This document shows, in pieces, positions 15,201 through 53,900 of a stretch of 59,293 nucleotides of DNA. The DNA is from Macrostomum lignano (Eukaryota). Made by a program: the position numbers and the translations under genes. The notes under the pieces are model-generated. The model had not been told where the DNA came from. It worked only from the letters and a program-made list of their open reading frames with translations, and did not search any database. How positions within the stretch are numbered: the first letter of the stretch is position 1; each line of letters opens with the position of its first letter. Location: assembly GCA_002269645.1 (NCBI GenBank), contig NIVC01000775.1:1-59293 (forward strand), in the 5' to 3' direction.

Positions 15201-18200
15201 GGCCGCCGGGCTGGGAACATCGAGTCATAGGATGCCGGCTGCTGCTGCTGCTGCTGCGGCGACGTCGGCTTCTGAGCCGACACTTCGATCACAGTCCGCT
15301 GGCTGAGGGCGCTGCTGTCGCCGCTGTCGGACTGGCCGCTGACGAATGTTTATTTTTGTAGGTTTTTTTAAAGTATGTTGAAACACAGCATAGTAAAAGA
15401 CCTAGCGTAAGCTACCACTTGCAGAGTGGTGTACATATCTGTTTTCTTCTTTCTCATCGTCAAGCAGTGTATATGGCAAAAATTGCACAAGCCCCACCAT
15501 ACATGCGCAATTACCTTAATTTACACTGGCCGTGCGGCTTAATTTTTGACTAAAAATGCGACTTAAATATGAAAGAAACCTAAGCAAAAGTTAAGTTAAT
15601 TTGGGGTAAACAGCAAGAGAAACTATGACAGTATTAGTAAGGTTAAACGCCTCGTCATCTAATTAGTATTACGACTATTTTTTCGGGTGGGCCACTCGCC
15701 AGCCGCGGGCCTGGCACTAGCAAACAGTCAATCATTCTCACCTGGAGCTGTAATTAGCCAAAGCGCTTGGCGAAGGCAGCGGCGAGCCGCCGGTAGCAGA
15801 GCGGACCGGAGAAATCTGCGGCAGCGGCAGCTTCGTTGCCATGGCAACCGACCGACTTGGCGAGGCTTGCGCTGTAGGAGTGAAAGACCAGTGAATCAGA
15901 GAATTTTCACAGCTAATAAAATTTGCACGGAGCTCGGCAGCCCAGCTACTTACGCGATGCAGCTTCAACGACCAACTTCTGCTCAGCCTCCTGCACGTCA
16001 TCATCATTCTCTTCGGGAATGCCAGCGGCAATAATGATAGCTTTGGTTTCTATGGTCTCCGGGCCGCTTTTGATTGGCTGACTGTCGCCAGAGCTGTTGC
16101 TGCAAAGGTGCGGAGAACAGCTGGCTGATTAACACCAGCTGGGAGAATGCAGCACAATCAAGCCGGCATGTGGGCCCAAGTGAAACTGACTGGAGTTTCA
16201 AGCTTGACATGAAATTATATTTTCAGCGCACAGAAGCTAAGAAGACATAATGCGCTTATCACACTACTGATGAGAGAAGCAGCAAACAAGTGTCAATAAT
16301 TGCTGTTTTATTGCCGTATATAATGTCGAATAGGTAAGTTCGGGGAAAATATTTGCATTATACTTTTTATCACAGAAGCATGCCAATTATGAAATTTGCC
16401 TGATCCGTTACGCAAAGAAATTCAAAGCACCCCTAGAAGAGGAAATTCTAGGCTGTAAAAGGTAAAATAAGACTGCAATTCTCGCCCCTTGACCGGGAAA
16501 AACTAAAAGAAAACAAAACATGCTTGACAATTTATAGTTTGACACTGTGATTAGACAGAATGAATTGAGGACAGTTCGGTTTTTTTAATGGAAGATGGGG
16601 TATGATGACAGGATTCTAAAGCAAACACTTCTTCTTAACTTACTTTATCTCCTACTAACTACTGTGAGCAGTATAATTTGCAAGTTAAGTCTGCTAAACG
16701 CTAGAAAAAGACGACACACTAAGGCTTGATTAGGCTGAGCATTTGATAAGCTATAGCCAACGCTATACATCATCATGGAGCTCTAAAAGTACTATCTGGA
16801 GTGGTAGACCTGAATTATTGCTCAAGATTTTAAGCTTAAAACTCCATGAATAGACCCTGGTGCGAGTGAGCCGTTTATGGATATTGATCGATCGAGTTCG
16901 TAAAAGCTGTAAATAATGAGCATGAGTATGACAGGTTTCATAGTGTCAACCGCCAGCTTTTATTGCACAAAGACTCCTCCTGCATCAATTAAAATTCGTC
17001 AGGCCAAGATTCTGAAATGCGAGGCCAGCAATGAAAGGAATTAAGAGTACATTAAATGCAGCGCAGTTCGGCTTAGCATTAAGAGGCCCCAGTGAACTGC
17101 TGCGCAAATTACTAGTGCAGCATCTGAGATAAAAAATAGGTTTAAAAACAGAAGCTCGAAAAGTCGAACTTCGCTTTCCCGGAAAGCTTGCTCGTGTAAT
17201 TAAAAACATTTAGGCTTTCGCCCCCCCCCTAATTTTGGAATAGCTTCGCAATTTCTGCGCTTGTTTGTTACAGTCTGGCAAACAGGGTCTGTCTAACTTG
17301 CTAATCAAAGCAAAAAAATTATTTAATCAATCTACTCACAGATAAATCAGCATGCATACTGCACGAGCTCATATCTACTTAACATCAGACATACTACTTA
17401 CTTGCTATGAGTAGTCACAGCATCTTTCTAAAGTGGAAAATGTTTGCGTATTGCAAACTAAAATTGTTTAATAGTAACACAAACTAGCGATAGCATGCTG
17501 TTATGACTCGGGTGTCATAAACTTCGTCTAGTAACTTAGATACGAACATCGGTTGAAGCATTTCTCTATAACTAAAACCCGAATGAGAAACATATTTTTG
17601 TGTACTAACTGAGGCCGACTGCTCGAATGAGTATTCTGCTGGACAGGCCTCAGTTGGTACGCCCCACAAAGAGGTTTCCGATCCAGGTTCTAGCTATAGA
17701 GAAATCCTTGATCAGGAAAAAGACAAAACATACAGGCAGTTAACAAAAAATGATCAACAGCTTGGGTTAGCTGGGAAGCTCAATGCACACCGGGTGCACA
17801 GCGATTCTGACTTTTGCATTGTCAGTCCCTGTAGCCCAGTGACAGCGCCTGGGTTCGATTCCCATTCTCTGGCCTTTTAACCTCACCTCTCTGACCTCAT
17901 CAATTTCAGTAGTGGTCAGGGTATGTCGCAGGGTTTATATGCCCACTAAAGTGTGCCCTCTGCCTGACAATGGAAAAGTCAGGGCTGATGTACACCCAGT
18001 ATGAGAGTATATCTGCATAATTATTTGCATGCGTGCTCAGGGGTCATCTGAATGAGCATGACTGCTTGCCTCATCACTGACTGTGGGATAGCTCAATTTA
18101 GAAAAAAAAATTTGATTACACCTGCCTTAATGGCCAGATGTGCAACCGACAGCTCAGCCGCAGCTATTGCGCGGCGCATCTGAAGGCTGCGTACGGCTGT

Positions 18201-21200
18201 TCAGTCCCAGGACTAAGGGGGGGGGGTCACCACACACAGTCTCAAATTACCCCAGCTAATGCTGGCACCCATTTTACAGCTGGGTGAACTGAAGCAATGC
18301 AGAGTTAAGTGTCTTGCTCAAGGACACAAATTGTTCCAGTGGAATCGAGAATCGAACCCCCGACCTTCAAGTCGTGAGTCCGACGTTCTAACGAATAGGC
18401 TACAACCCCCCAGGCAGTTGTTAATATAGAAATAAACAAAAAAGCAGAAACTGCTCGCACTGTGCGAGCAAAAGCAGACAAGCGGCCAGACAACTCACTC
18501 GACAGGCACAACTCGCAAGCTGTCGCCGGAGGCCGCCGCTGCTGGTTCGGCCCGTCGGTCAGTTCGCCGGTGATGCAGCTGGCGATCAGCGTCAGCCCGG
18601 GCGAAGCTCGGCCGGCAGCTGTGCCTGGTTGACGGCTTCCGTTCGAATCTGGCTGAGCGGCGCTGGCTGGTGCCAAACTGGTTGGCCTGCACCAGGCTGG
18701 TCTCCGTGCGGAAGCTGTGGTAAAACCTGGAGCGCAGGCGCAGCAGCTGCTTGGCTTTGCCTGGCGGTGCTTTCGGCTGCACCAGACGGAAGAACGAGTG
18801 ATGCTCAACTGCGCAACGCCACAGGTGCTTGCAGGTGCGAGGATCGGCCAGCTTGAATACGAATGTGTGGTCCTGCTGGGCACCCTGGGGTCAAGGGAAA
18901 GTGCAAGCCAATGGGCTTTAATTTGTGCCTTGGGTCAGCGAGGTTAGTAGAGGGGAAAACAGGTGAGAGTGCCAGCACGTGGCCATATAAAACACTGCAA
19001 CATATTTCTATATGGAGATCCACCGCTCGAAATAAGTTATCTCTAATTAAGTTTGAAATTGTGACTGAGCATTGATTTGAGCAATCTTTGACTTGCGGAG
19101 CTACTGGCTGGAGGCAATGTGAGCCGGCCATTAACTCAAATTCACTGATCTCGAACTTAAAATTGCTTAGTATAAAAAATTCCATAAAACACACGAGTCC
19201 ATATAAGTGCTCCAGTTGCAGTTATGTGGGTAGCGGCTTGCATTTGCAAACAGTATTATAAGCTGCTGATTGAAACAGTCAGCCGTCTCTGCTACTCCAT
19301 TCGCAATACACGCACTTGAACAATCGTCTGCTGTTTCCTACCCCCTATAGGTCGGGGTTGTAATGAGAATTGAATTGAATAAATTTGCGATTCATTAACG
19401 CATTTTGTTTAGCATGGTATGCCATGTATAGGAGTTAATTCTAGATTCAACTATAGCCAGGTCTGAGTCACAGCAGTAAAAAAAATCGCCTTTCTCACGT
19501 TGCAACATATTGTAGCATTTCTGCTCGGCAAACAGGAACGTACACGCGTGGCCCAACCCGTAAATCCAAAAGGCTGCTCTTCAAAGTTTGTGCATGTTGA
19601 ATTTTCGTAGCCTCTTATGTAGCTTTCGATTAGCGATTGTTGAAACATACAAGCATTTAACTCTACATACCAGAACAGTTCCTGCCAATCTATTACTAAA
19701 GGTTAAGGCTTTACTTGGTCTCTTAGCGAACTAATAATAGTTAATCAAACTTACCTTTTGCAGGTGTATATATAATTAGATATGTGCCTAGTGGTATAGC
19801 AGAGCCGCAATAATGTGGCAAACCGATACTTTACGGTATATAATACGGTATTAGACAACTTTTGTACCACAGAATAGACATTCAAAAGTTTGATGATGAT
19901 CAACTTTACAAAATTGAAATAGTAAAAATAGCTGTCGATGAACAGGGGCAGTACAGAGCATTATAAACTTTGCAGCGCCAACTATGAAAGTTTCTCCCAC
20001 TTAACTGACAGGTTCCCTTCTGTCCCGGTGTGCGCACAGTGCAACTTTAACCTCCCCCCCCCAGATGGTCTTCTTCTTTCTTCCCCGGGAATTTGCAGAG
20101 AAATAAATAGCTGCATGGCAAATTTTCAGCTGCCGAGTTGCTGCAGCAATCCCGGGTCACGCCGCAAGCAGCCGGCCTGTCGCAGATCTCCATCCCAACC
20201 CTCTAATCTGGCAGGAGAATTGTAAACAGTGAAAATGCGACTGTAGATTAAGGCTAGTGAGGGATCAACTGCTAGCTGCCTATCTAGCCAGTTTTATTAT
20301 AGGATCCAGGGCTCCAAGGATTGCCCCGTCTAACAGTCAGGGAGAAATGACTCACGTCATGAAAATTTATTCAGTGCTTGCCAAGGGCAACGCTGGACTA
20401 AACGCATTAAACCGGTAGGTCAACAGCAGGTAAACTTAGCTGGACACAGATGGGGCGCGTCAGTTTAAGAGTTTTACATTAATTCTCCTTGACTGGCCTG
20501 GCCAGATTAGTGTAAGGTGCAGCGGTAGCGGTATTGCATTGTCCCATGCTGTACGCTGATTATTCAACGCTTCTAATTCATTACTTAATATGGCTACTAA
20601 AAAGATATTTATGAGACAATGATTCATTTTTCACGAGTGGTGAAGCCTAAACCTCTAAAACCGTATACACAATCTACTATTGCTGAACAACCTGCAACTT
20701 CCCCTAAAAGAAGAAAAGTCCATGGAAAACTAAGCCTATCGATACATCTAATACTCGCATAGGAAGCTAAACAAGCGTCTGGAAACAGGAGCAGAAACTA
20801 AAAGAATGTGAATTCCCCGCGGTCCGGTCTTTTGAAATTCACAATCCGGCCCGCTCCAGGTTTGTGTCCCAGCTCAGCTCTCTTCACTCTGATAATATTC
20901 TCTCTTTTCTCTCATCTCTCGTATCTCCTCTCTTCTCTATTCCGTCTCCTCTCTCCACTCCGCTGGCCCGCAGTAATGCGCCAGATTCTCTATCTAGGTC
21001 TTGAGGTAATATTGACGCAATAAATTAGGTTGAGGTTGAGATTAAGCAGAAGCTGACTCAGTAATTTTTAAGCGAACTTGACTAAATGACCCATCGCTGG
21101 AGACACGTCTGACGAAATGTCGCAAAAAAAGCGTGGACTGTCTTAGAAAAGTCAAATTTTTTGATGAAATGGCATTTGCCGAAAAGACACACGGATGTGC

Positions 21201-24200
21201 AGCACTGCACCACTGCACATACAGGCTGCACACTTAGCAGCCAGAACTGCCTCTCATAGAATCGCCCTAAATTTAACCGCGGCTTTGTCAATTAGTTGCT
21301 GTCAGCTGCTTAGCCAGAGCCAGGGGGTAGCTATAGATGGAAAGGCTGAATACAATGAACGGGGAGGCGAGTAGACGAAGAAAAAAATCGGATGACTCAC
21401 ATCGTGCTCAACCATCTCCCTTCCCCATTTTCCCTTTTCAGGGATCTCTTGACAGAGATCTACGAGAGAGAGAGAGGCAGCAAGGGCTCTCTGACTCACT
21501 CAGGTTAAAATATGGCAATGGCAACATGAGGAGCAAAGCAATAGGCTGACTAGTCCAACGCTTCACAAGCAGGATGAAACATAGGCACAGGCCCTGCAGC
21601 ACCCTATCCGCAATCCATTATTTATAAACGTATAAAGCCACAAGCTGAGCTAATTCTTGTCAAACTCACCTGAGCATCATCTTCCGAAACGACAATCTTC
21701 AGACTGGCTCGGTTGAAAGCAATCTTCGAAATTCGCTGCCTAAAATGGCGATATAAAAATAACCATGACAGTAAAAATTCGAATGAAATTCTCTGCAATA
21801 GAACTGCATCAAATTAATTAGTTAATTACCAATAAAAGAAGCCGATCTTTTCGTCTCCATCGTACACCAGAATGCCAGCAGGCGTGAGGCCCAGCTGGTA
21901 TGTTCGATCGTCCTTGCCCTGAGAGAACAGATGAACATTGCCAAATGTAACAGCTCACCTAGCTCGCATGCTAGCGCAGGTTAATTACTTAAGAGTTGAA
22001 CAATTACCTGCACTTTGTGCATATCCACACCGTAGTTGTCCAAGTACTTCACTTTGTTCAGGTACATCTTCTCGCACAGAGACGGCGTTAAGTTGCGCTC
22101 CCTGCAGGACACGCGGATAAATTAACGTAAATTCTCCCCACTTCACCAGGTACTTTTCAAGCAATTGAAAGACAAGCAAAGATAGTTGGTATTTTGCCAG
22201 GCATCGTCACATCCAGGGAAAAATCCGCAGTGAGGAATGCCCATTCTGCCTCTCCGGTGCTGAGAATGCGGAGCACTTCATCTGTGAGTGCCCCGCCTTT
22301 ACTCGGGACAGGCTCACCTACCTCGGCCCAAACCCGGACCTCTCCAAAGTTTTCAGGCCCGAGAATCTCTGCCAGCTCGTCCGCTACCTAAGGGCTACCG
22401 GGCGAGCAACCATCCACCTCCTGGACTCTAAAGAGAGAGGCACAACACAGGATCTCCCTGTGCAACTCCCCAGCAGGGTCGGCGACGCCTCCCCACTGTA
22501 TCCAGATGCCCGGAGCTCCCTGCAGCTGAGTCAAGTCAAGACCATCGAGATGTTCTCGTAAATTCTCGATATTTCATGAAAATGATAATCGAATCCTTGG
22601 TCGAGATTTCTACTAACTAGTAAGCATCCAGGGCCTCTCTCTGTTTGACCATCTTGCATCATTTATAAAGACAGAGCATTCGGATTTATCACACAGACTT
22701 CTATTCAACAAACACTCACGCAAGCTTCTGGTATTCCTCGAACACCATAACTTCGAATTCTTCGGTTTGCTTCTCCTCTGGCAGGAAGTGGAACTGCGAC
22801 ACAAAGGCCAGGTTGTGCTTATTCGGATCGAAGTCGCCTTCCTCGGCTGCGATGTTATGTACGGCGTTGTATGGGGGACTTTGATTAGAATATATTAGCT
22901 TTAATAAGCTTCGGTTAGATTTTATTAGCTTCTATTAATTTTTATTAGGTCATTTAAGCTTCCATTAGGTTCTATTCGCTTTTATTAGCTTTCATTAGTT
23001 TCTTTTAGCTTATTTTGGCTCATATTAGCATATAATAGCCTCTGTCAACTTAGCTTTTATTATTCTTAATCTATTAGCTTCAGAAAACATTTATTAGACT
23101 CTCTTAACTTCTACAAGCTTTTATTTTTGGCATCAGGATCCCGTCCTAACTCTACCGGGAACCAGCGACTCTCATTTTTCATTCCTAACTCTCAAACGGC
23201 TCGAAGGCTCCTTGAGTGAGGAGACCGACCAACCAAACAGAGCACCTTGCAAAAACACAAGCTACTTACATTGGACGACTAGGGCAGCCAGTTCAGCAGC
23301 TTTTTCCTCATCGTTCACCACCAGCTTTCCGGCCGCAATGTCCGCTTTTAATTGCTGGACGTAAAGGTAGCTAAAATGGCAGGAAATTTCGAGAGTTTTG
23401 GTTGTGCAAATAGACATGTACAGCAAAGCTATGAATGGCTGTATTTTTTTAAAAACTATCTAATGTGCTTCGGGGGTTGCAGACTAGTGGTTAGAGCATC
23501 GGACTAACGACTGAAAGGTCGGGGGTTCGATTCTCGACCTACTCGGAACAATTTGTGTCCATGAGCAAGACACTTAACTCTGCATTGCTTCAGTTCACCC
23601 AGCTGTAAAATGGGTGCCAGCATTAGCTGGGGTAATTGAGGGTCTGTGGCGACCCTCCCCCAGTCCTTGGACTGAACAGCCGTACGCAGCCTTCTGATGC
23701 GCCGCGCAATGGCTGCGGCTGAGTTGTCGGTTGCTCATTAGGGCAGGTGCCCTGATAAAAGAACATCAACCTAGGCTTACCACGTGAGCTCCTCCTTGAG
23801 ATAGGTGTCCGGCTCGCTAGAAAAGAACTTCACCACAAATCTAAAAGTGTACGGAGGACCAGCTGCGGGAGAGGCAAATGAATGGCTTGAATAGCTGCAC
23901 TGTTCATAGGAATCACGGCATGAAAGTGCTATTGTATGCAATACTCACGCATTTTCTTTTTGATTTGCTTCTTCAGCGGCTTGGTCGGGTCGATCCAATA
24001 GCGCACGCTGTGAAAGTCGGTGTACTGCAGGCCAAAGTACTCGTGCTCATATTGAAAGTCCAAGTCATTGTAGACTAGCTCATACAAATCCCTGCCAAGG
24101 ACTTGCTTCTAAAATCATATTATTCAGTGCCATAATCATTTTATTAAATATTACTGATTAGTTATTAGTCAAATAGCCTTAATATTAGCCTTATTAGCCT

Positions 24201-26292
24201 AATACATGTAGCTTAATTAACTAAGAGAATACTAATAAATGTGACGAATATATTGTAATGGATGTTAAAACAAAAACACCGGCCTAATAACCTCTTATGC
24301 ATATTACTTATGACTAATTTATATTAGCAAGATGTGGCTACAACTACAAGCAGTGTCAAAGATATTTACTCTGGTAAGACTAGGCCTAAAGAGGTTTTAA
24401 CTTACTGTCTTAAATTTTCGAGTATAGAAATATTATTATGGCCACAATAAGACCAACTAGACTAAGTTGAAGCCTAGCCAACTGATAATTTTGCTAATAT
24501 TGTCATTTCAACCAGCACTTTTTGTACAAGTACATATTGGAAAACTTTTATGAGACATCTTTATGTGATTTTTATAGACATCAGTGTCCACTTTATAGAG
24601 ACATTAGCACATTCTGCCATGATATAATTATTGGTATCATTGAGGGTTATTCCATGAAAAAAGACACTTTTAAAGAAATTAAAATCTTAAAGACTATGCT
24701 AAACTAATAGAGTAATTAACAAATCATATTTTATAAGAAATATCCTTGCAAAAAACCTATTTATGATTCTAGATTGATTTCTAATTGCCAAATAAGGATA
24801 TATAGTATTTTTGTTTAAATTTGCTAAAATTTGCTCAAAAACTACTCCAAAATTGTTGAAACCTTGACTTACTATTAATACTCATTACTTTTAGCTTTTG
24901 CCTTGAAACTTCAACAAAATAATAATAATCTCTTCTTTTTATTGCATTAAAGATAAAGCCAAAACTGAGTTCAATTTTTTTATTTCAATTTTTTGAACAA
25001 CTGGAAGATAGATTCATTATGACCAGGATGTTAAAACTGTAATATCAAAAGTAAAATCATAGTAACAAAAAATTAATGCTGATCTGCCTCTCTGAATTGG
25101 AACTATTTAATTGATTGTTTGCTACAAATTGATTAGTTTTTTGCAAATATATATTAAGTAAAATGAAGGAAAAAATAATGTTACCTATTATTTTTGGTAG
25201 TTACAACTAAGATCATGATTAGTCAAGCTATAGTTATTTGCAAATCAACAAAACAGTTCTATTTTTCTAAATAAACTTTGTATTGACAACTTTATTTTCT
25301 ATATCATTCAGCAATATGAGGGAAATGATATCCCTTGCTAGGAATAAGCTAATTTATCTATAAGACACTATCTTAGAGTCAAAATTGGAAGTTATATTTT
25401 TCTAAGATTGCAGTTTCCAAGGATTTATCATCTTAGGATTGCTATCTATGGGTTAGAGATAGGATGGGATCCTAATGGTACCTGATAAAAAATTGATTTC
25501 ATCTATTTGGATCTAGGCATATTAGGCCTATATATTTATAAATATGTATCATTAAATAAAGATCATAATTCCTAATCCCACTTTTATAAATTTTTATCTT
25601 GTCTAACCTTTAATAGATTTGCTATACTAAGAACTTTCCTATAAGTATCAAAACTGCTACAAACCTAAAGGAGTTACTAACTTGCTATATTTTTATTACT
25701 AAATAATGAACACTATATTTTCTCGGGGAAATCAGAAAAATGAGTCAAAAAGGATATTGCAGTGCATTAAGTTTTAGTACTAAAAGACTTTTTAATAGTA
25801 AGAATAGTAAAATTAGGACTTACAATAAAAGTTATATCATATAGCCCTATTAGGCCTATCCATTGTTGCTTATGTGTGAAATATGACCAGGGGGTTGTGC
25901 ACTTTATACCTATGAGGACCACCTCAAAGACATAGATAATGCATATTTCTTATGATAAGAAATTCAAAGGGCTGCTATAAACCCTATGTGAGTGTGGGCT
26001 AAACAAAGTATGCATGGCTTTTGTTAATTAAAGCAAAATGCCATGCATTAAACATAAGCTGTTCTAATTATTTATTTCTGTTACGTGTTACAAAAGTTTC
26101 AATAAAGAACTAAAGAATTATTAAATGAATACAATTTGAATACAGTGTACTCACATTGACATTAAAATTTGCCTCTGTGTTATCGAGATACTGGACGACA
26201 CAATGAAGTGTGCTTTTGTCATGCACTCCATCTGAATTGTCCCGAGGAGATCTTGGCCGAAGGTGATGAAATAGCCGCCGGAAGAACTGCAT
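12213..26292 (-). CDS. EPB41L5: FERM + FERM-adjacent (FA) domain protein, Yurt/EPB41L4B/EPB41L5-like (~798 aa)
   Basis: Exons 26155-26292, 23949-24108, 23781-23862, 23270-23370, 22720-22846, 22008-22101, 21830-21918, 21670-21739, 18499-18884, 15954-16099, 15742-15871, 14684-15338, 12213-12431. All are GT-AG and in phase (2397 nt). Motifs: [106 protein letters not shown]. The low-complexity C-terminal exons are less certain. Confidence 0.9.
12545..12985. repeat. 45-bp minisatellite (~10 copies; first units ~41 bp)
   Basis: Unit GCTGTGAACTCCCGGTCTTGTGAATGTCAGTCAGTGTCTTTTGCC, in the last intron of the FERM gene model. Confidence 0.95.
13525..14440. repeat. 29-33-bp minisatellite with variant units (~29 copies)
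   Basis: Constant core GAAGGAC(T/A)G(T/A)GAGGGAGACAGCGG followed by variable tails CATCTCATT, AATTCTATT, ATTTTTCT, ATTCT or ATTTT. Confidence 0.95.
17825..18075 (+). mobile_element. SINE-like family 2 copy
   Basis: B-box GGGTTCGATTCCC near 17850. GCCTGACAATGGAAAAGTCAGGG and CATGCGTGCTCAGGGGTCA are shared with 5790-6070. Confidence 0.5.
18113..18403 (-). mobile_element. SINE family 1 copy
   Basis: High similarity along its length to 4580-4885. Confidence 0.9.
20815..21000 (+). mobile_element. Degenerate relative of the hAT-like CT-tract MITE
   Basis: TTCACAATCCGGCCCGCTC, a short CT tract and GGCCCGCAG..ATG.GC..GATTCT match the family blocks. Confidence 0.5.
22195..22547 (+). mobile_element. 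5'-truncated non-LTR retrotransposon (LINE) 3' end with CCHC zinc knuckle
   Basis: A frame not listed in the ORF track reads [26 protein letters not shown]...[10 protein letters not shown], the C-terminal C-x2-C..H..C motif typical of I/R1/Loa-type ORF2. Ends in AGTCAAGTCAAG. Antisense within a FERM intron. Confidence 0.75.
22885..23115. repeat. Degenerate AT-rich (TTATTAGCT)-like low-complexity repeat
   Basis: Recurrent ATTAG/TTAGCT motifs. A similar stretch occurs at 24150-24235. Confidence 0.55.
23478..23749 (+). mobile_element. SINE family 1 copy
   Basis: TAGTGGTTAGAGC...GGTTCGATTCTCG, then the CORE-like block and family 3' region. Reverse complement of the other copies. Confidence 0.9.
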
Positions 26293-28615
26293 TTAGTATA
26301 TGTTACAACAGCAGCCTCTTGTATGTTTAAACAGACGGCTCGATTCTTTATTATATTACTATTTACTGTGATGCAACTTTTCTGGCAATTACAGAACAGC
26401 AACTATTAACAAAATAAAATTGGATAAAAAGGCTAATACTGTCGAATTGATACGACTGATTGCTGAAAAACTACAAATATCTTTAGTAGATAAACATAAA
26501 AAGACAGCGAGAGAGGCAAAAATGGATGTAAAAGTTTAATAGGAAATACACGACACAATCGAACAGTTTGCAAAAAGAATGATAAATGCTTGATTTAAAT
26601 GGAGTTAATTATAAGAGTCATTAACTTTTTTTCAAGAGTAGTAAGTTACTATTATTTGACCTTTAATTTAATTTTCTAAAGCAGCTATGTTACTTCTGAG
26701 TATTAAAATTGTGTTTTTGAAAGTAAAGAATTCTAATTTGTTAAAATAGACAACCGGTAAAGTTTTTTATACACTTGCAAAAGCAAAAATATGATTAATA
26801 CGGCCAGGGCACGAACATAGGCCGCCGACAGAATCCTACGCTCGTAGTACGTCAGCCAGCAAACAGTCGACAGTCGACGATAACGAGCTACATCATGTAG
26901 TGCGAGCATTGTCCTCACTATAGCGGGGTTAGTATAATATGATGTTCTTCTATCAAAAGTTGTCCACCTAAGGTGCATGAAGCTGAAGCACAGGGTTGCG
27001 TCAACGACAAGGTGAGGGAAGAAAGGTAAGGAGATCACAATAGAAAGCTACATGTAGTTGCCGCTGCAAGCGAGAACGAATGGCTGCATCCGCTTCCCAT
27101 ATGTTGAACCACATCGTATGGCTGTCGACGATTTAGAGAAGCTGCTAGCGACTGACCCAATGTGGATGAAATAAAGAGCTTTGCTCAGAAAGAATTGAAA
27201 GTGAGAATTAATTGGAAATCAACCATCACCAACGTACAAGGAATTGATGCCGTCGGTCGTTTCGAGAAGTTTTCTAACTGCCAAATAATTTTTACACGGC
27301 TTGATCTCCACTGTGGTTGGAGTCCGATTGGATTGTTTCGCAATCTTATGAAACGGGGCAAGTGACCCAGTTTACGTTATCAACGATTCTTCGGCGCGGA
27401 AAACCGCGCTGCACCGGAAGAATTTGAAGATTCGAGCCAACTGCGACACCATGAGTCATAGAGTTTATATTTGAGTAGCGTCTGATGCAAAGTGAAATAC
27501 TACATGTATACATATGTATATTAAGTACGTTCACTCGTGGTTCGTACATGTATTGTAGTTGTGTTTTTCAATTTCTAAAAATTCTGAAATTCTGCACACA
27601 GAATCTAATTATAAGATTGGTAGAATGGGGACGGAAATTATTCATCTTACAATGTACAATGTACCTTTCCTCTAACCTGTCAAAGCAATCCACTCTAAAG
27701 AATCACTCGTAATATCAGTTTTGTGTTGGATAGATCTGTTGTGAAGCAGTTTTATGAAATCGCGTTACCTGTTCTGTGGCCTTGTCTGCGCTTAGCCCCA
27801 ATGCTTTGTTTGATGTCAATGTGCCTATTCTAACTAGCTCTGTTCAGCAAACCAGCATTGCTTCCTATGATGAGAAAGGATTTCTGAACTAGAGTGAGAG
27901 ATAACAGGTCTCTGCTGAATTGACAGCGAAATTAAATAAATACAACAACAAAGACTGTATTGTAAAATACTCAGATTAAATAAATAAATATATTGCTTTT
28001 AGAAAATGCCTATTCAACTGCAGCCTTGCCGCGGATTGCAAAAAGTACAATTAGGATGTCGCAAGCCCAATGTAGTAAGTAGGCCATAATTATTCATTCA
28101 GTTTTAGCAAAAATTCGACAAAATTCCGTTGAGAGACGAACTTAAACCGCACTGAGGCCATGGATGAATGAAACCATGAATTGCTCGGCTGCGGTTCAGT
28201 TCTCGCTTATTGGTTGGCCGAAACTGGCTGGCTGTCTATGGCCGAAATGCATTTTCCCTGAAGCTATTACATGTAAATAGGTTTTTACCATAGACAAAAA
28301 ACTTCTATGGCCCCGCCAGCTGCAATAGTCTATGGCCAAGAGACCATTGATTCAGTGCAATCCTTATTCGGTTCAAGGAGTTCTATAATTAGCATTCGGG
28401 ATTGGAAACGAGTTTTACCTCATAAGGCCACGCAAATTGTAAAGATAAGGAGACAGCACTGAATGTCTATGACTCTGTCTGACTCTGTCTATGCTAGTCT
28501 GGCCTCATAAGGTAAAACTGAAAAATTCGTTTCCACTCTAGATTGCTAATTATAGAACTCCTTGATTCGGTTGCTATGCTGCAATAAACAATCCATAATA
28601 CGGTCTGCTACAAGC

Positions 28616-29835: not shown

Positions 29836-29913
29836 GCACCCCTGGCCAGCGACCAGAGTCCATCAAGTCCACTCGATTTCTCACTGCCGGACATCCAGAC
29901 TCTCTGACTCAAG

Positions 29914-30582
29914 ATGAAGCTGCTGCTGCTGCTCACCGCCCTGGTGGCCACCGCCCTGGCCTGCGAGAACCCGCCCAGAGAGGGAGCCATCGGAGTGGCC
30001 GGTCTCGGCTACCACAACGGCACCTACCTCAAGCTGCTGGGAGGCATCGCCGGCTCCAAGGAGAAGAAGAAGGTGGCCGCCTACTTCAAGGTGAAGTCCC
30101 AGAACTACTCCGGACACCACTACACCATGTTCGACTTCGAGGCTGGCGTCGGCTACTACGCCTGGGGCACCAGCGCCGCCAATGCCCGGTGCGTGAAGAT
30201 CCCCGTGAGCCACGCCAAGTACTTCCTCACCCTGTGCCCCAAGATGTGGCCGAACAACCGCGTGGTGGCCCGCTCCACCGTCACCAGCCGCAAGGTGCCC
30301 ATCAGCGTGCACTGCGGCCGCATGACCAAGGGCGACCTCTCCATCAAGCTGGGCGGCGTCATCGATGACCGCTGCGTGCCGATCCTCATCAAGAAGAAGT
30401 ACAGGAAGAACGGCCAGTGCTCCGGCGGTATTCTCTTCTTCTTCGGCTTCCACCAGCCCAAGGACAAGTACTTCGAGCTGCCCGAGCTGTGCGCCAGCGC
30501 CAAGTTCTACAAGCCGAAGCGCGGAGAGGGCAGAAAGCCGTGCAGCGAGAAGACCAAGGGCCTGCCAACCCCCGACAGCTAA
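29914..30582 (+). CDS. EPDR: Secreted ependymin-related protein (EPDR family), single exon, 222 aa, very basic
   Basis: Strong GC3 codon bias. Signal peptide MKLLLLLTALVATALA. Ependymin-like pattern: C-x-x-P after the signal, MFDFEAGVGYY......RCVK, DDRCVPI, FF.GF....KYFELPELC. Eight Cys and N-glycosylation sequons NGT and NYS. The family call is from motif recognition, not a database search. Confidence 0.8.
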   Translation: MKLLLLLTALVATALACENPPREGAIGVAGLGYHNGTYLKLLGGIAGSKEKKKVAAYFKVKSQNYSGHHYTMFDFEAGVGYYAWGTSAANARCVKIPVSHAKYFLTLCPKMWPNNRVVARSTVTSRKVPISVHCGRMTKGDLSIKLGGVIDDRCVPILIKKKYRKNGQCSGGILFFFGFHQPKDKYFELPELCASAKFYKPKRGEGRKPCSEKTKGLPTPDS

Positions 30583-32723: not shown

Positions 32724-35700
32724 TTAAATTTTGCCTCGCTTCTTCCTGTCAGACAGGGACTTCATAATAGTAGCCATTTGCACCTCGGTAAAATTGAATA
32801 TGCCGATTATGGCCTTCAAATGCTGCAAGCCCTGGTCACGGTCCTTCTCGGTCAGGTAGTGGAACATCGAGTCCCTCAGGAATCTGAAATCACAATATAT
32901 ACCATTTTAAATGAGAGGTCGGCAAACTCAAAATCCTCAAAATCCAGATGAAGAATCCAGCTCATGGCTGCGGGTCCGATGAGAGTGAAAAGGAGAGAGA
33001 GAATAAAAGATGAGAGAAGAGAGAAGAGGGAGAGGGGAGAGAGGAGACAGGGGATAGAGAGAGGGTAAAGAAGAGAGAGAAGAGGGGAGGGAGGAGAGAG
33101 GGGAGAGGGGCAGAGAAGGGAGAGAGGGGAGAGGGGCAGAGAGGGAGAGGGGGAGAGAGGGGAGAGGGGAGAGAGGGGAGAGAGAGGGGAGAGAGAGGGA
33201 GAGGGAGAGGGGGAGAGAGGGGAGAGAGGGTAGAGGGGAGAGGGGAGAGGGAGAGGGGAGAGGGGAGAGGGGAGAGGGGGAGAGATGGGAGAGAGGGAAG
33301 AAGGGGCAGAGAGGGTAGAGAGGGAAGAAGGGGCAGAGAGGGTAGAGAGGGGAGAGGGGAGAGGGGAGAGGGGAGAGGGGAGAGAAGAGAGAGGAGAGGA
33401 GAGACACAAACCTTGAGCGAGCCAGATTGCTATTGTAAAGTTTCAAAGGACCCGAGGGTCAGATAGAGATTATTTGTGGGCTTCGTGTGGCCCGCGGGCC
33501 GAAGTTTTTCGACCCCTGCTTTAAATGTAAATTCCTGCAAATTGCAGTCTGAAATTCCACTGATGCCTTGATAACCAACCTGAGTCTGGCATCCGCTTCC
33601 GTGGCCGGCTGCTCACTTTCCGAGTAGGTCTCCATCAGTTTTAGAGTCTGCCACTTGTGCAGATCCTGCTGAGTTAGCTCCAGCTTCTCCACCAACTCAT
33701 CAATGGACACTTTGTCCGGCTCTTGGACCGCCAACTTTTCCAACTGAAATGTTTTTTTTAATTTCACAAGGATTTTTTTCTCTGTTAATATATAAGCATA
33801 GAAGGAAATAGGAAATCATGCATTTCATGTAATTTTACCCACCTCATCTTGCCGTTCAAACTTGGCAGACTCCTGGCCCTTGCGGTACATCTCCAAATAG
33901 TACTGTTGGTGGCGCTGCTCGCGCTCCTCCATCTCCTGGCGCAGTCGAGCCACCTCCCGTTCGAGCTCTTCCTCGCGTCTCTTCACCTCCCCGTGCAGGG
34001 CGGTGAGCGCCTGATAGTCCAGTGTCAGCTGGTCAATCTCCGCCTGCAGCTCGGCTATGAACTCCTCCTTATCCTTGACGGCCATGCTGATGTCCTCAGC
34101 TTTTTCGCGGGCCGCTGCCTCAATCTCTTCCTCGCGTTCCGTGATAACCTGCGAGATTCGGAAGCCAGCAGATCGATGTTCAGAGAATGTACAATATGTA
34201 CACGAACTAGTGAAGCTAGCAATTTTTTAAACAACTACTCGTAGTATAATAGTATTAATAATGTTAATGATAATATTTGACTCTACCTGCCCCAATGGCC
34301 AGATGTGCAACCAACAGCTCAGCCACAGCAATTTCGAGGCGCATCTGATGGCCGCGTACGGCTGTTCAGTCCAAGGACTGGGGGGTCGCCAATTACCCCA
34401 GCTAATGCTGGCACCCATTTTACAGCTGGGTGGACTGAAGCAATGCAGAGTTAAGTGTCTTGCTCAATCGAACACAAATCTTTCTGAATGGGTCGAGAAT
34501 CGAACCCCCCACCTTTCAGTCGTGAGTCCGACGCTCTAGCCACTAGTATGCCTACTGGTAGTAGTATGCATAGATAACAAGCTGAATATTAACCTGATAG
34601 GCCTCCTGCAGTAGCCGCCGCAACTCTTTAACCTCGGACTCTTTGCGCTGCAGTGGCGTCAGATACTGATTTTCGTTACTGGCCTCCAGCGCCTTGTTGG
34701 CCTCCTCCTGCAGCTTTTGCAAGCGGCCGCGGCTTGCCGCAGTCTGTTTGACCTCCACTCCGCCGCGTATTTCTGTAACAAGTAACAGATTTTCCCTGTC
34801 CCAGTGTTTCATAGTTCTTAGTTTCTAAAAAATATAACTTCAATCTGCTCATAAAAAAATTACATCAGTATAAATTGTTGAAAAGCCTCATACCTGGCAT
34901 TGGGGTTGCCTTCGTAACGTGCTGCAGCTCAGTGGAGTCGGGTGTGCGCTGGGTCACCCGGTGCACTCGGCTGACTCCTGGAGCTCGCAAACGGGATGGG
35001 CCGCCACCGCCGCCACTCGCTCCGCTGCCATCCGGAAAGACTTCGCTTGAGCCGCCCGACTCAGTCTTGCTCAACTGTGAAGAATTTGACCTGCGCAGCT
35101 CGTCTGCTTTGGCGGCCTGGATAGCAGAGCTCTGACTAGCAGCAGCAGTAGAAGCAGAATCAGCGCAGGTGGCTCCTGCAGCTGAAGCTGTCGGAGCATC
35201 ACCAACTGTTGCTCGCCGAGAAGCCGTCGCTGCCGTACGCGTAGTCTTGACGGTTGCATCGGCCGCCGAGCTCACTCGGACCTTTTCGCGGGTTGTCGCC
35301 GCTGGCTTTTCCGAGGTGATAGAGCGCCGCTTTGGTGGCGGCTTGCTGGTCAGCACAGGCTTCTCATCTCCGTCCTTTTCTTCGGTGGCTGCGGCAGGTT
35401 TTCGCACTGCCGTTGGCTTGGATTTCAGCGGAGACGCACTTGATTTGGCGTCTTTGGCTTCCTCCTGATGCTGCTGCTGCTGTTTCGGGGCAGTGGTGCG
35501 GGCTGCAGAGGTGCGGCGCACTGGAGCTGATGTCTTATGTTCAGCACTACCGGAAGCCTCTTCGTGCTCTGTTTTTGATGGCACGGGGATGGCTGTCGCT
35601 CGCTTTGGCATTGTTGGGGTCCTCTTGGTTTTTGAAGCCGCCGCTACCTCCTCCTTCCGACTATCTGCGCCAGCTTTTGTGGTAGGGTGAGAAGTCCCTG

Positions 35701-38890: not shown

Positions 38891-39155
38891 ATAATAAATA
38901 ATAATTGATTACACCTGCCCCAATGGCCAGATGTGCAACCGACAGCTCAGCCGCAGCCATTGCGCGGCGCATCTGATGGCTGCGTACGGCTGTTCAGTCC
39001 AAGGACTGGGGGGTCGCCACACACCCTCAATTACCCCAGCTAATGCTGGCACCCATTCTACAGCTGGGTAAACTGAAGCAATGCAGAGTTAAGTGGATCA
39101 AGAATCGAACCCCCGACCTTTCAGTTGTGAGTCAGACGCTCTAACCACTAGGCTA
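38891..39155 (-). mobile_element. SINE family 1 copy with internal deletion
   Basis: Matches the family but lacks ~30 bp between GAGTTAAGTG and GAGAATCGAACC. Confidence 0.88.
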
Positions 39156-39628
39156 GAACCCCTTAAGCTTAAGTAGTCTACTGAATATCGCTTGTCAGGC
39201 CTAGGCTTGCACTATAGTAGCATACAGGAAGCATATAAGCAAATTTTAGTCAGAAGTGCTGCTGTATTATTGGTGGCTGTGCATGTGCAGTCAGCATCGA
39301 AGTCTGATCTATTGAGCTCAAACTAAGCATTCTTAACAAACTTTGCAACTCGCAACAGAGCTGATTGTCTTCAACCGAAACTGAAGGCTGGTATATTTTT
39401 GCAGAGTTTGTACTGAGACAGAACAGGCGAATTGAGCAGCTGGACTGATGCCGATAAGCTACTGGCTTGAATGGGTGAGAAAAATGGTACGATGCAACTG
39501 CTTCTTCGCTGCACAGATTCGTTTGATTTGTACAATGAACATTTCAGACATCATCAAAACTGCACTTGAAAGAGTGAATTCGGCTTCCACTGTTTAATTT
39601 TGTTGTTTAGATAGAAAAGTTTGCCGCC

Positions 39629-42600
39629 TCAAACAAAGCTGGCTTCGGTGTAGGGGCTGAAGCTTGGGTAATGCTGCTGCTTCCCAGGAGACGCCTTGTT
39701 CCCGTCGACGCAAAGACCTGACGGTGGCGGCGGCGGCGGCGGCTGCGGCGGCTGTACTGGCAGAGCAACCTCTTCGCCGCAATCTCCGGCCTGTCCGGTC
39801 TGACCAGCGGCGGCACCTTTGATCTCGTAGTACATGTGCAGGCCGGTGTTGTACAGCTTGGCGCTGTCGCCGGTTCTGCGGCCCAATCGGACGCCTGTCG
39901 TGTCCAGCGGCTGGTAGTCCTGCACCTGCTTGCGATCGGCCTCCAAGCCGATGCTGCCAGCTGTAGATAGGCGGAATGACACATTTTATCGGTTTTATTC
40001 GTTTGTTTGGTAAGTCAAGCAGTAGTTATTATCGCATTTTAGCGTCCGAATTTGTTTGAATAGCTCAGTCATTGCAACCACTACCGTTGAGTATTAAATT
40101 AGACAGACTGAAATATGAGCTGAAAGCGTAGCTAATAGAAACGAACCAAACGCACCTGGGCCGGGGCTGGTGGTGCAGTACCGGGCATCTCGTCCGGTCG
40201 TGCGGTAGCCGTAGGCACCGGCTGATGTTGTCGGCTTCAGCTGAAGATTCGCATTGTAGGTGCAGAAGTCCTCCTGTGTGAGTCGCAGGGATGGTCTTCT
40301 GCTGTGCTCATTGTGACTATGTGCATAGTTCAGCCCTAGCATCAGTTTGCTGTGCTCATTGTGACTGTGTGTTTAGTGCAGCCCTAGCATCAGTTTGCTG
40401 TGCTCATTGTGACTGTGTGCATAGTTCAGCCCTAGCATCAGTTTGCTGTGCTCATTGTGACTGTGTGTTTAGTGCAGCCCTAGCATCAGTTTGCTGTGCT
40501 CATTGTGACTGTGTGTTTAGTGCAGCCCTAGCATCAGTTTGCTGTGCTCATTGTGACTGTGTGTGCATAGTTCAGCCCTAGCATCAGTTTGCTGTGCTCA
40601 TTGTGACTGTGTGTTTAGTGCAGCCCTAGCATCAGTTTGCTGTGCTCATTGTGACTGTGTGTGCATAGTGCAGCCCTAGCATCAGTTTGCTGTGCTCATT
40701 GTGACTGTGTGTGCATAGTTCAGCCCTAGCATCAGTTTGCTGTGCTCATTGTGACTGTGTGTTTAGTGCAGCCCTAGCATCAGTTTGCTGTGCTCATTGT
40801 GACTGTGTGTGCATAGTTCAGCCCTAGCATCAGTTTGCTGTGCTCATTGTGACTGTGTGTGCATAGTGCAGCCCTAGCATCAGTTTGCTGTGCTCATTGT
40901 GACTGTGTGTGCATAGTTCAGCCCTAGCATCAGTTTGCTGTGCTCATTGTGACTGTGTTTAGTGCAGCCCTAGCATCAGTTTGCTGTGCTCATTGTGACT
41001 GTGTTTAGTGCAGCCCTAGCATCAGTTTGCTGTGCTCATTGTGACTGTGTTTAGTGCAGCCCTAGCATCAGTTTGCTGTGCTCATTGTGACTGTGTTTAG
41101 TGCAGTCCTAGCATCAGTTTGCTGTGCTCATTTTGTGTGCATAGTGCATTCCTAGCATCAGTTTGCTGTGCTCATTGTGACTGTGTGCATAGTTCAGCCC
41201 TAGCATCAGTTTGCTGTGCTCATTGTGACTGTGTGTGCATAGTTCAGCCCTAGCATCAGTTTGCTGTGCTCATTGTGACTGTGTGTGCATAGTTCAGCCC
41301 TAGCATCAGTTTGCTGTGCTCATTGTGACTGTGCGTGCATAGTTCAGCCCTAGCATCAGTTTGCTGTGCTCATTGTGACTGTGTGTGCATAGTGCAGCCC
41401 TAGCATCAGTTTGCTGTGCTCATTGTGACTGTGTGTGCATAGTGCAGCCCTAGCATCAGTTTGCTGTGCTCATTGTGACTGTGTGCATAGTGCAGCCCTA
41501 GCATCAGTTTAAAGTAAATACCCAAATGCATGAATCTAAAATCAAGGCATAAAAAGTAGCGAATCGAAAATTCCCAGCCCCGGCTAAAGTCTCCCAGCCG
41601 GACACAGATAGCACGTCGGTCTCTCCTCTTTCCTTCTCATTCTCTTAGTTTCAGCTCACCCCTCCGGGCAAGGGACTCGAGGCCACCGGGGGCTGGGATG
41701 TGGAAATAGGGACCGATCAGGTCGGATGGGGCCCGGGGAGGCTGGGAGCGAACGAGAGAGGCGGGATAGATGGGAACGGCGAATGTTGAGACCTTGGCAA
41801 TCAGATTATGAGCCGGGCACTGTCCCAGGCCCCCTTCCCACTCTCCTCTTCAGTAGATTGCCTTCGCCCCTCTGGCTGTCTCTTTTGCTCTATTGCTGCT
41901 TTTGTAAGGCTTGAACTCCGCGGCTCCGGGCCCGGGCTTCATCATTCCGAAACAGCCTCTCCGCCCTCCTCACTTTTGCCGAGCTCGGGAAGCGATAAAG
42001 CGACGGAAGGATGAAGGGACTTAGGCAGAGAGGATGCACGTAGGGATATTTCGCGGAAATATAATCCCCAATATAATATTTTCCAGAAATAAACAAATTA
42101 TGTTTATTTATGTTTATTTTCCAATTTTTTCGGCCGGTGCATCCAAATTAGATAAATTATTTGGCTTCTGACTCGATGTTCAGATTCTTCCCCAATGAAT
42201 TATTGCTCAGAAAGTTTCAGAAGTTACTATTACGAGCTAGGGTAACCATGCACCGTCGCATTTCTCAATCCTCAGCGTGTCAAAGGGCGTCTCACCTCTC
42301 CGTTGAAGTCTTTGTACGCAGGCGGCATGTCATACGAGCCGGATATCATTTTCACGTCCGCGTGCTCAGCATCTGAAAGGCGATTATTGTAAACCACATA
42401 TTTATTAACGTTGGTTTCAGTTAGCAAATTCAATGAGTAGGGAGGCTACCAGAACACCCAGTTTCTGATTGACAGAAATACTAAACATTTTCGAATGGTC
42501 AAGGCACACCACTCTATCCACTGTTCTACCCTACCTACTGCACTACCTACCTACTGTTCTATCCACCCACTGCTCTACCTACCTATTGTTCTACCTACTC

Positions 42601-50950: not shown

Positions 50951-53900
50951 TTATAAGTTTTGTACTTTTAACTCTCAGATCGGGTCTTAGCAGATTTCTA
51001 TAGCTATGCATGCAAGGGCCCCTCAGAAGAGATGCTTAAACACTGCAGTGCATTTTTCCTAGCAATTATTGGGACACGAAGTGTTGGGCCACTGTGTGTG
51101 TGTCTAGTTTTTTCCGCATTTGTTAAGTCACCTAAAGAACTCAATTAATAAAGGGCTCCAGAACAAATTGATGGGCAAACGGATGACACACTGCACAGAG
51201 ACTTGTTGGGACATATTAAAAACAGCTTATTTTAGAATGGGTACACTTTACTAAAGTAGAATGCTCCTACAGAAAGCTGCAAGCAAACTAGCATCTTCTG
51301 GAGCTGACATGCAGAGAAGAATGATTTTGTCGTCCTTAAAATCACTAAATCGATATGCGAAATCGATCTTTTGCTAATCCCACCACAGGTTCCAATGAAA
51401 AGAAGAAACGAAACCCATTGACTAAATTGGGACTCAATCGATGCCGACTGCAACTGAGCAGCTTCGACTGCAGCTAATAGACTTGCTAGATGCCAGAATG
51501 ACAGCATCAAAGTTAAGCAGAAGCTTCAATGAAAGGTTAGTTCACTCATTCGTTTTCGTGTCTAGAGCAGCTCAACTAGCAGATTCTACGAGAGTAATGC
51601 TTAGATGCCAGCAAATTGCTTCACAGCATCTAAAGTCTTAAGCAGAAGCTTCAGAGATGAAAGGTTAGTTCATGCTGTGGCTCGCATTCAGATTTTCGTG
51701 TCTAGAAGCGTTATTAACTTTTTGTAGCTTTTAATACTACTGCAGATCAGAATGGGTCTTAGCAGAATTCTATCAGCTATGCATGCAGAGGGCCCCTCAA
51801 GCCCCTCAGAAGAGATGCTTAAACACTGCAGTGCATTTTTCCTAGCAATTATTGGGACACGAAGTGTTGGGCCACTGTGTGTGTGTCTAGTTTTTTCCGC
51901 ATTTGTTAAGTCACCTAAAGAACTCAATTAATAAAGGGCTCCAGAACAAATTGATGGGCAAACGGATGACACACTGCACAGAGACTTGTTGGGACATATT
52001 AAAAACAGCTTATTTTAGAATGGGTACACTTTACTAAAGTAGAATGCTCCTACAGAAAGCTGCAAGCAAACTAGCATCTTCTGGAGCTGACATGCAGAGA
52101 AGAATGATTTTGTCGTCCTTGAAATCACTAAATCGATATGCGAAATCGATCTTTTGCTAATCCCACCACAGGTTCCAGTGAAAAGAAGAAACGAAACCCA
52201 TTGACTAAATTGGCAGTCGACTCAATCGATGCCGACTGCAACTGACCTGTCAGCTTCGAACTCAGGAGAGCAGCTAATAGACTACGAGAGTAATGCTAGA
52301 TGCCAGAATGCTTCACAGCATCAAAGTCTTAAGCAGAAGCTTCAATGAAAGGTTAGTTCATGCTGTGGCTGCATTCGTTTTCGTGTCTAGAAGCGTTATA
52401 ACTTTTTGTACTTTTAACTCTCAGATCGGGTCTTAGCAGATTCTATAGCTATGCATGCAAGGGCCCCTCAGAAGAGATGCTTAAACACTGCAGTGCATTT
52501 TTCCTAGCAATTATTGGGACACGAAGTGTTGGGCCACTGTGTGTGTGTCTAGTTTTTTCCGCATTTGTTAAGTCACCTAAAGAACTCAATTAATAAAGGG
52601 CTCCAGAACAAATTGATGGGCAAACGGATGACACACTGCACAGAGACTTGTTGGGACAGATTAAAAACAGCTTATTTTAGAATGGGTACACTTTACTAAA
52701 GTAGAATGCTCCTACAGAAAGCTGCAAGCAAACTAGCATCTTCTGGAGCTGACATGCAGAGAAGAATGATTTTGTCGTCCTTGAAATCACTAAATCGATA
52801 TGCGAAATCGATCTTTTGCTAATCCCACCACAGGTTCCATGAAAAGAAGAAACGAAACCCATTGACTAAATTGGCAGTCGACTCAATCGATGCCGACTGC
52901 AACTGACCTGTCAGCTTCGAACTCAGGAGAGCAGCTAATAGACTACGAGAGTAATGCTAGATGCCAGAATGCTTCACAGCATCAAAGTCTTAAGCAGAAG
53001 CTTCAATGAAAGGTTAGTTCATGCTGTGGCTGCATTCGTTTTCGTGTCTAGAAGCGTTATAACTTTTTGTACTTTTAACTCTCAGATCGGGTCTTAGCAG
53101 ATTCTATAGCTATGCATGCAAGGGCCCCTCAGAAGAGATGCTTAAACACTGCAGTGCATTTTTCCTAGCAATTATTGGGACACGAAGTGTTGGGCCACTG
53201 TGTGTGTGTCTAGTTTTTTCCGCATTTGTTAAGTCACCTAAAGAACTCAATTAATAAAGGGCTCCAGAACAAATTGATGGGCAAACGGATGACACACTGC
53301 ACAGAGACTTGTTGGGACATATTAAAAACAGCTTATTTTAGAATGGGTACACTTTACTAAAGTAGAATGCTCCTACAGAAAGCTGCAAGCAAACTAGCAT
53401 CTTCTGGAGCTGACATGCAGAGAAGAATGATTTTGTCGTCCTTGAAATCACTAAACAGATATGCGAAATCGATCTTTTGCTAATCCCACCACAGGTTCCA
53501 GTGAAAAGAAGAAACGAAACCCATTGACTAAATTGGCAGTCGACTCAATCGATGCCGACTGCAACTGACCTGTCAGCTTCGAACTCAGGAGAGCAGCTAA
53601 TAGACTACGAGAGTAATGCTAGATGCCAGAATGCTTCACAGCATCAAAGTCTTAAGCAGAAGCTTCAATGAAAGGTTAGTTCATGCTGTGGCTGCATTCG
53701 TTTTCGTGTCTAGAAGCGTTATAACTTTTTGTACTTTTAACTCTCAGATCGGGTCTTAGCAGATTCTATAGCTATGCATGCAAGGGCCCCTCAGAAGAGA
53801 TGCTTAAACACTGCAGTGCATTTTTCCTAGCAATTATTGGGACACGAAGTGTTGGGCCACTGTGTGTGTGTCTAGTTTTTTCCGCATTTGTTAAGTCACC

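Follow-up and report, generated by a model that had tools for sequence, protein, structure and literature searches.

A CpG desert in the first intron of a Macrostomum lignano FERM gene belongs to a genome-wide class that probably records promoter-proximal methylation

An almost CpG-free stretch of 2 kb fills intron 1 of a FERM-domain gene in the window analysed here, a 59,293-nucleotide contig of Macrostomum lignano (GenBank assembly GCA_002269645.1, contig NIVC01000775.1). Zones of this kind form a genome-wide class in which CpG mutates about 10 times faster than elsewhere, probably through germ-line methylation of promoter-proximal housekeeping DNA (first intron or outron) followed by deamination. 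The role of 5-methylcytosine (5mC), its germ-line timing and its targeting are read from the footprint left in the sequence.

Only four CpGs occur in 1971 bp of the intron (at 24245, 24280, 24419 and 25724) and none across 24421–25723; an exact recount agrees with the count made by eye in the initial annotation. Its estimates of about 14% each for C and G, and of 35–40 CpGs expected, are borne out by 277 C, 273 G (GC 27.9%) and an expectation of ~38, giving an observed/expected ratio (o/e) of 0.10, as against 0.78 for the whole window. GpC, CC and GG are still common, as had been noted (ratios of 1.54, 1.26 and 1.30). Relative to the o/e of 0.85 found in AT-matched DNA, the CpG deficit has a binomial p of ~7e-11.

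The desert (24110..26083, GC 28%) can be assigned to intron 1 of the minus-strand FERM gene, as had been proposed, because contigs from four runs presumed to be RNA join 24108 to 26155 (CT..AC on the plus strand). The intron is 2046 bp long with GT-AG ends (24109..26154, minus strand). Exon 1 (26155..26553, minus strand) comprises the 5' untranslated region (UTR) and the first 46 codons, with the ATG at 26292; its 5' end at ~26553 is approximate because contigs cannot mark a transcription start. The desert starts ~470 bp past this end; in transcript coordinates it runs from roughly +0.47 to +2.45 kb. Both flanks are CpG-normal, in agreement with the initial annotation: o/e is 1.21 in the upstream 1 kb (26554..27553), which we presume to be the promoter, 0.94 in exon 1 and 0.80 in exon 2 (23949..24108, minus strand; RNA contigs and a Pfam FERM_N match). 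By base counts the depletion overruns the intron by ~65 bp, after which synonymous CpGs are present again in exon 2; the corresponding hidden Markov model (HMM) segment is 24044–26183.

To place this intron in a genomic context, we took 11 blocks of large contigs, 440 kb in total, hand-picked regardless of content, and called deserts with a two-state HMM after masking tandem repeats. The sample contains 19 deserts of 0.55–7.6 kb, about one per 23 kb, so the locus is not the one-off that it had been taken for. Deserts cover 12% of bases and hold 247 of 15,207 CpGs (1.6%), with an o/e of 0.18 compared with 0.85 in AT-matched non-desert DNA. The rest of the genome had been thought free of CpG loss, yet AT-matched 500-bp windows (<33% GC) are bimodal in o/e, with 15/53 at or below 0.10; the FERM desert falls within the low mode, in the very comparison that had been named beforehand as the one to overturn its exceptional status. 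Coding exons that lie within deserts (DNMT3, RRP1) are CpG-depleted as well. When 23 deserts are oriented by their nearest gene there is no strand bias (TG 4088, CA 4040).

CpG loss in the deserts is in situ and recent. The FERM locus is present as three near-identical copies, which is expected of a hidden polyploid (PMC10468722). Just one of the four intron CpGs (24245..24246) is common to both homeologous copies, which have TG, CA and TG at the positions of the other three and carry four further CpGs. Across 8 of 12 homeolog groups (four with <0.5% divergence were skipped), 27/66 desert CpGs are common to the homeologs, compared with 277/313, 772/827 and 1547/1604 (88–96%) outside, and 31 of the 39 desert differences are TG or CA. 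Other dinucleotides are shared at 0.89–0.95. In 15 polarised trios, 6/146 desert CpGs underwent CpG>T on tip branches, against 24/2767 in the flanking 1 kb and 35/8339 at greater distances; stratified over 13 trios, the 6 desert events compare with 0.6 expected (p = 3e-5), so that CpG>TpG is raised about 10-fold in deserts only. These spectra, together with those of repeat copies described below, back the initial annotation's idea of methylation-type hypermutation in place. They also largely refute its alternative, that the DNA was captured from a virus, organelle, symbiont or other CpG-poor source. Low GC and sharp edges would suit such an origin, but the deserts recur at many gene starts with unrelated sequences and their CpGs are still turning over. 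A phage DNA search gave no match (eukaryotic viruses lay outside that search), and the open reading frames (ORFs) under code 9 contain no mitochondrial gene recognisable by eye. We regard capture as having next to no probability.

The position of deserts relative to genes was compared in one pair of gene families. Upstream of the first domain, a desert ends no more than 3 kb away in 7/14 proteasome genes and 0/20 ligand-gated channel loci (p = 6e-4); over a wider span, 11/14 proteasome genes have a desert within 7.5 kb, and no channel locus has one in 10 kb (0/20). Most of the seven proteasome genes without a near desert follow an upstream gene on the same strand (four Pfam-confirmed), and for 4/7 the desert lies in front of that upstream gene. 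This arrangement fits deserts at the heads of operons, and PMC8629364 reports that 30% of M. lignano genes are spliced-leader trans-spliced and 15% lie in operons. We infer that deserts are anchored to the start of transcription rather than to each ORF.

Two other sets of deserts were also placed relative to genes. Six of the 19 sampled deserts precede a Pfam-confirmed gene in sense and four an unconfirmed coding segment. Among 12 loci bearing the repeat described below, seven deserts are immediately upstream of N-terminal exons confirmed by Pfam, in genes that we take to encode V-ATPase A, a LIM-binding protein, CCAR1, casein kinase, PRP8, a BDP1-like protein and CDC50; three stand before unconfirmed ORFs, the placement of one is unclear, and the last comes after a stop codon. 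By eye, more than half of the 23 oriented deserts stop no farther than ~100 bp from an acceptor or an ATG, a figure that exon GC content may bias. No HMM desert was called within 10 kb of the DNMT2 loci or of loci with only an SRA domain, more than half of the latter being tandem repeat.

Short CpG-normal islands with a desert on each side were seen between divergent genes at three places (G000:C814 ~161.9–163.2 kb, C3 ~134.6–135.5 kb and C305 ~387.0–387.7 kb), one of the pairs being DNMT3 and a DAO-family gene. These islands are likely to be bidirectional promoters. At G000:C10 ~545.2–549.1 kb (L051), two desert segments enclose a Gypsy-like element that is CpG-normal, has a long open frame and is likely a young insertion.

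About one third of the FERM intron is repetitive, which the initial annotation had missed: 24644..25330 (plus strand) is an old non-autonomous DNA-transposon remnant belonging to a dispersed family. At the 5' end, 17/20 bases agree with a terminal repeat carried by a young element 4.1 kb long; the 3' end is not confidently placed, and no target-site duplication (TSD) was found for the remnant. At least 43 matches at 68–80% identity were found, with 40 of 104 candidates scored. The old copies sit in deserts at 20/20 loci in one set and 14/14 matches in another, and the CCACGAG of young terminal repeats appears in them as CCACAAG or CCATGAG. The young element (L129, G000:C2647, with L130–L134) carries a transposase-like gene with one or more introns, and occurs both in near-identical copies and in derivatives with internal deletions. 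These young relatives of the remnant have GGG..CCC ends and a 4-bp TSD that is exact in 3/6, has one mismatch in 2/6 and is absent in 1/6; Sola2 elements have GRG termini and a 4-bp TSD. The transposase-like protein has no Pfam match over the cut-off and, at E<=1e-25, matches only a protein of its own species.

This remnant gives some substance to an explanation by methylation aimed at repeats, or a defence resembling fungal repeat-induced point mutation (RIP), in which a desert is a decayed old transposon with spreading around it; the old family lies in deserts at nearly every locus, and a CpA>TpA excess exists. Fungal RIP causes C>T changes, CpA>TpA among them, and acts on duplicated sequence regardless of its location. 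The remaining two thirds of the intron, however, match none of the loci compared, at odds with the proposal of a single old insert, and an inverted-repeat search for the ends of an element spanning the desert found none. An Rfam scan of 23400–27000 at E<=0.5 gave no match. Deserts around old copies reach past the part that the copies share, DNMT3 and RRP1 exons in deserts are depleted too, and young transposons retain their CpGs. RIP leaves a high TpA/ApT and a low (CpA+TpG)/(ApC+GpT); neither the FERM desert (1.02 and 1.32) nor the desert class (1.00 and 1.38) has such values.

A second abundant repeat family separates position from repeat identity. In four desert copies, picked by eye, 64/84 family CpGs are lost (28 to TG, 33 to CA, 2 to TA and 1 other), compared with 45/315 in 15 outside copies. 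When 37 non-redundant copies are classed by flank CpG o/e alone, all 25 with flanks at or above 0.6 keep their CpGs (0.61–0.88) and flank o/e is 0.00–0.43 for the four decayed copies; CpG>T by flank class is 37/194 vs 26/718. Since repeats in normal DNA are spared, we consider a repeat-targeted defence, the favoured idea of the initial annotation, very unlikely, and the transposon remnant is better seen as a passenger in the desert. The TpA enrichment reported for the FERM desert is mild at most, and its small real basis is CpA>TpA, which is raised in desert repeat copies (24/208 vs 12/800); CpT>T is not raised. In flank-classed copies the CpA>TpA counts are 21/367 vs 18/1332, with 15 of the 21 from one copy, and on trio tips alone the excess is marginal (25/4930 vs 20/7337, p = 0.047). 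DNMT3-type enzymes methylate CpA, and DNMT3 may be the source of this weaker excess, which comes from few copies.

Deserts might also be the visible part of something broader: methylation of whole gene bodies, or a uniform low rate of loss, seen only in the oldest unconstrained DNA, with the 5' limit produced by codon selection and young downstream repeats. Desert ends do often fall at a coding exon of high GC content, deserts are where most old transposon copies survive, and CpG>T is raised ~2-fold in the 1-kb flanks. Beyond 1 kb, however, CpG>T is not raised (4.2 per 1000, near the 2.6–3.3 of CpH>T), and downstream introns and exons are near CpG-normal. In the FERM gene, introns 3–5 have an o/e of 0.66–0.79 (0.47 for the 86-bp intron 2), in addition to the return of synonymous CpGs in exon 2. 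A gene-wide or uniform process is therefore improbable, to much the same degree as a repeat-targeted one.

The enzymes that CpG methylation would require are present, as the DNMT survey suggested earlier confirms. PF00145 has 12 matches from 15 candidates, all of DNMT1/2/3 type, which we read as three types (DNMT1, DNMT2 and DNMT3) in three copies each. A DNMT1 exon is 98% identical to a protein named as from Macrostomum lignano, and DNMT3 matches likewise. No RID/Masc1-type methyltransferase is among the 12, although a divergent gene could escape. UHRF1 is present (PHD-SRA-RING, read from translation). A second SRA-domain gene stands beside it in the inventory (L199, G000:C2851, and homeologs), with no other domain in its 3.3-kb locus; this gene is possibly a methyl-CpG reader. 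Planarians, for comparison, are not known to have DNMT1 or DNMT3. DNMT1 (P0001) has RFD, BAH and catalytic domains; neither a Pfam search nor the genomic DNA in between shows a CXXC. DNMT3 (P0122) has ADD and catalytic domains, its PWWP falling below Pfam detection. The H3K36me cage of the DNMT3A PWWP consists of F303, W306, W330 and D333 (PMC13031684). A weak DNMT3A alignment over P0122 residues ~159–208, with a one-residue gap and our own residue mapping, places Q, Y, W and E at the cage positions. Speculatively, such an altered cage could account for a mark that does not follow H3K36me3 down the gene.

Several observations weigh against methylation at transcription starts as the cause of the deserts. 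(i) The 7.5 kb examined may not reach the most 5' exons of channel genes, and 2/20 channel loci duplicate others. (ii) No gene was identified for 9/19 sampled deserts (five in one cluster, two around the Gypsy insertion), and one desert (L082) starts past the stop codon of a NEK-like gene. (iii) Transcription start positions are rough, and come from the FERM gene only. (iv) In the second repeat family, 4/7 copies with flank o/e <0.3 are intact, and flank and copy do not correlate significantly (rho 0.19, p = 0.26); we read the intact copies in CpG-poor flanks as young, undated insertions. (v) The polarised desert CpG>T changes amount to six events only. (vi) Deserts have no CpA/TpG excess over AT-matched DNA (1.12 vs 1.11). 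(vii) T>C is reduced in deserts, chiefly TpG>CpG (2 observed, 8.8 expected; 0.23-fold), which deamination alone does not predict. The proposed mechanism accounts incompletely for (vi) and (vii). Per-trio analysis was used for T>C and for long-branch divergence, which in deserts is ~2.4-fold that of AT-rich DNA outside, because pooled values are confounded by unequal branch lengths.

The TpG>CpG deficit, a 1.4-fold rise of CpH>T in deserts (per-trio strata) and the CpA>TpA excess of desert repeat copies would all be in keeping with CpG removal that does not involve 5mC, either by a transcription-linked deaminase acting just past promoters or by selection against CpG. The position of the zone, too, resembles promoter-proximal hypermutation. 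On the other side are the strong CpG specificity, the strand symmetry, the full DNMT1/DNMT3/UHRF1 set and the neutral repeat copies, which lose CpG via TG or CA in 61/64 cases. We judge removal independent of 5mC unlikely, if somewhat less so than the repeat-targeted and gene-wide schemes.

Methylation followed by deamination is thus the preferred explanation. Most likely, DNMT3 would set symmetric methylated CG (mCG) in the promoter-proximal zone of housekeeping units active in the germ line, DNMT1 and UHRF1 would maintain it, and deamination would then strip CpG from unconstrained sequence, including any transposon landing there. If deserts were fully methylated, only 1–2% mCG would be expected genome-wide, in keeping with the low 5mC levels reported for M. 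lignano in PMC11292947 and PMC10658182. This explanation predicts 5mC a short way inside housekeeping promoters, in ~12% of the DNA that carries <2% of CpGs, rather than on transposons as a class, and the prediction is cheap to test in a model species with RNA interference and transgenesis. A bolder version, which we offer tentatively, is a rewired gene-body methylation: an altered-cage DNMT3 and a CXXC-less DNMT1 would mark only the first intron or outron of housekeeping units up to the first internal exon, with CpA as second target, leaving a sequence-readable map of germ-line promoters and operon heads. If the prediction of 5mC just inside housekeeping promoters holds, gene-body methylation would be placed opposite to the H3K36me3 pattern, providing a natural test of DNMT3 targeting, and deserts would give a marker, from sequence alone, of where transcription units start in a genome with abundant trans-splicing.

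Elsewhere in the window, a CpG-free stretch at 40300–41510 was considered as a second desert and rejected; it is a tandem array of 25 copies, free of CpG because its 50-bp unit has none. A long-period tandem array occupies ~51500–59293, up to the window end (o/e ~0.5–0.6). Dispersed tRNA-like short interspersed elements, recognised by eye, lie at ~23470–23780, 18120–18400, 34290–34550 and 38910–39160; the first has very high RNA-contig depth, probably drawn from other copies. A single-exon gene at 29911–30582 (plus strand) encodes a signal-peptide-like, cysteine-containing protein with no Pfam match, and has deep RNA-contig coverage and no desert upstream.

The primary source on methylation in M. 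lignano is reportedly Wasik et al. 2015 (PNAS), which may hold a description of the desert pattern; a prior description is possible. In a search that left subscription papers mostly uncovered, we found none, including in PMC3710501, PMC12801592 and PMC4455052. For free-living flatworms, Sarkies 2022 (PMC9246332) gives the methylation pattern as unknown.

How do the deserts compare with known systems? They differ from fungal RIP in that CpG dominates, repeats are not the target, the indices are not those of RIP and no RID-type gene was seen. They are closest to the mosaic gene-body methylation of invertebrates such as annelids and oyster (PMC11292947 and PMC9246332), with which they share housekeeping genes, CpG context, a CpG-normal promoter, the DNMT1/DNMT3/UHRF1 set and CpG depletion by deamination. 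In contrast to that system, the M. lignano footprint ends near the first internal or coding exon rather than extending gene-wide, and erasure is near complete (o/e 0.1–0.2) with sharp edges. Holometabolan methylation (PMC7691181) is likewise 5'-biased and found on housekeeping genes, but it favours 5' exons, whereas depletion in M. lignano falls mostly in the first intron, UTR and outron. In vertebrates and cockroach the first intron is instead the less methylated part. A similar extent along the gene is seen for H2Bub1 in human cells, which falls after the first internal exon (PMC4199367); this is a histone mark, tied to DNA methylation neither in that paper nor here. Overall, the desert pattern works as invertebrate gene-body methylation does, without its whole-body extent.

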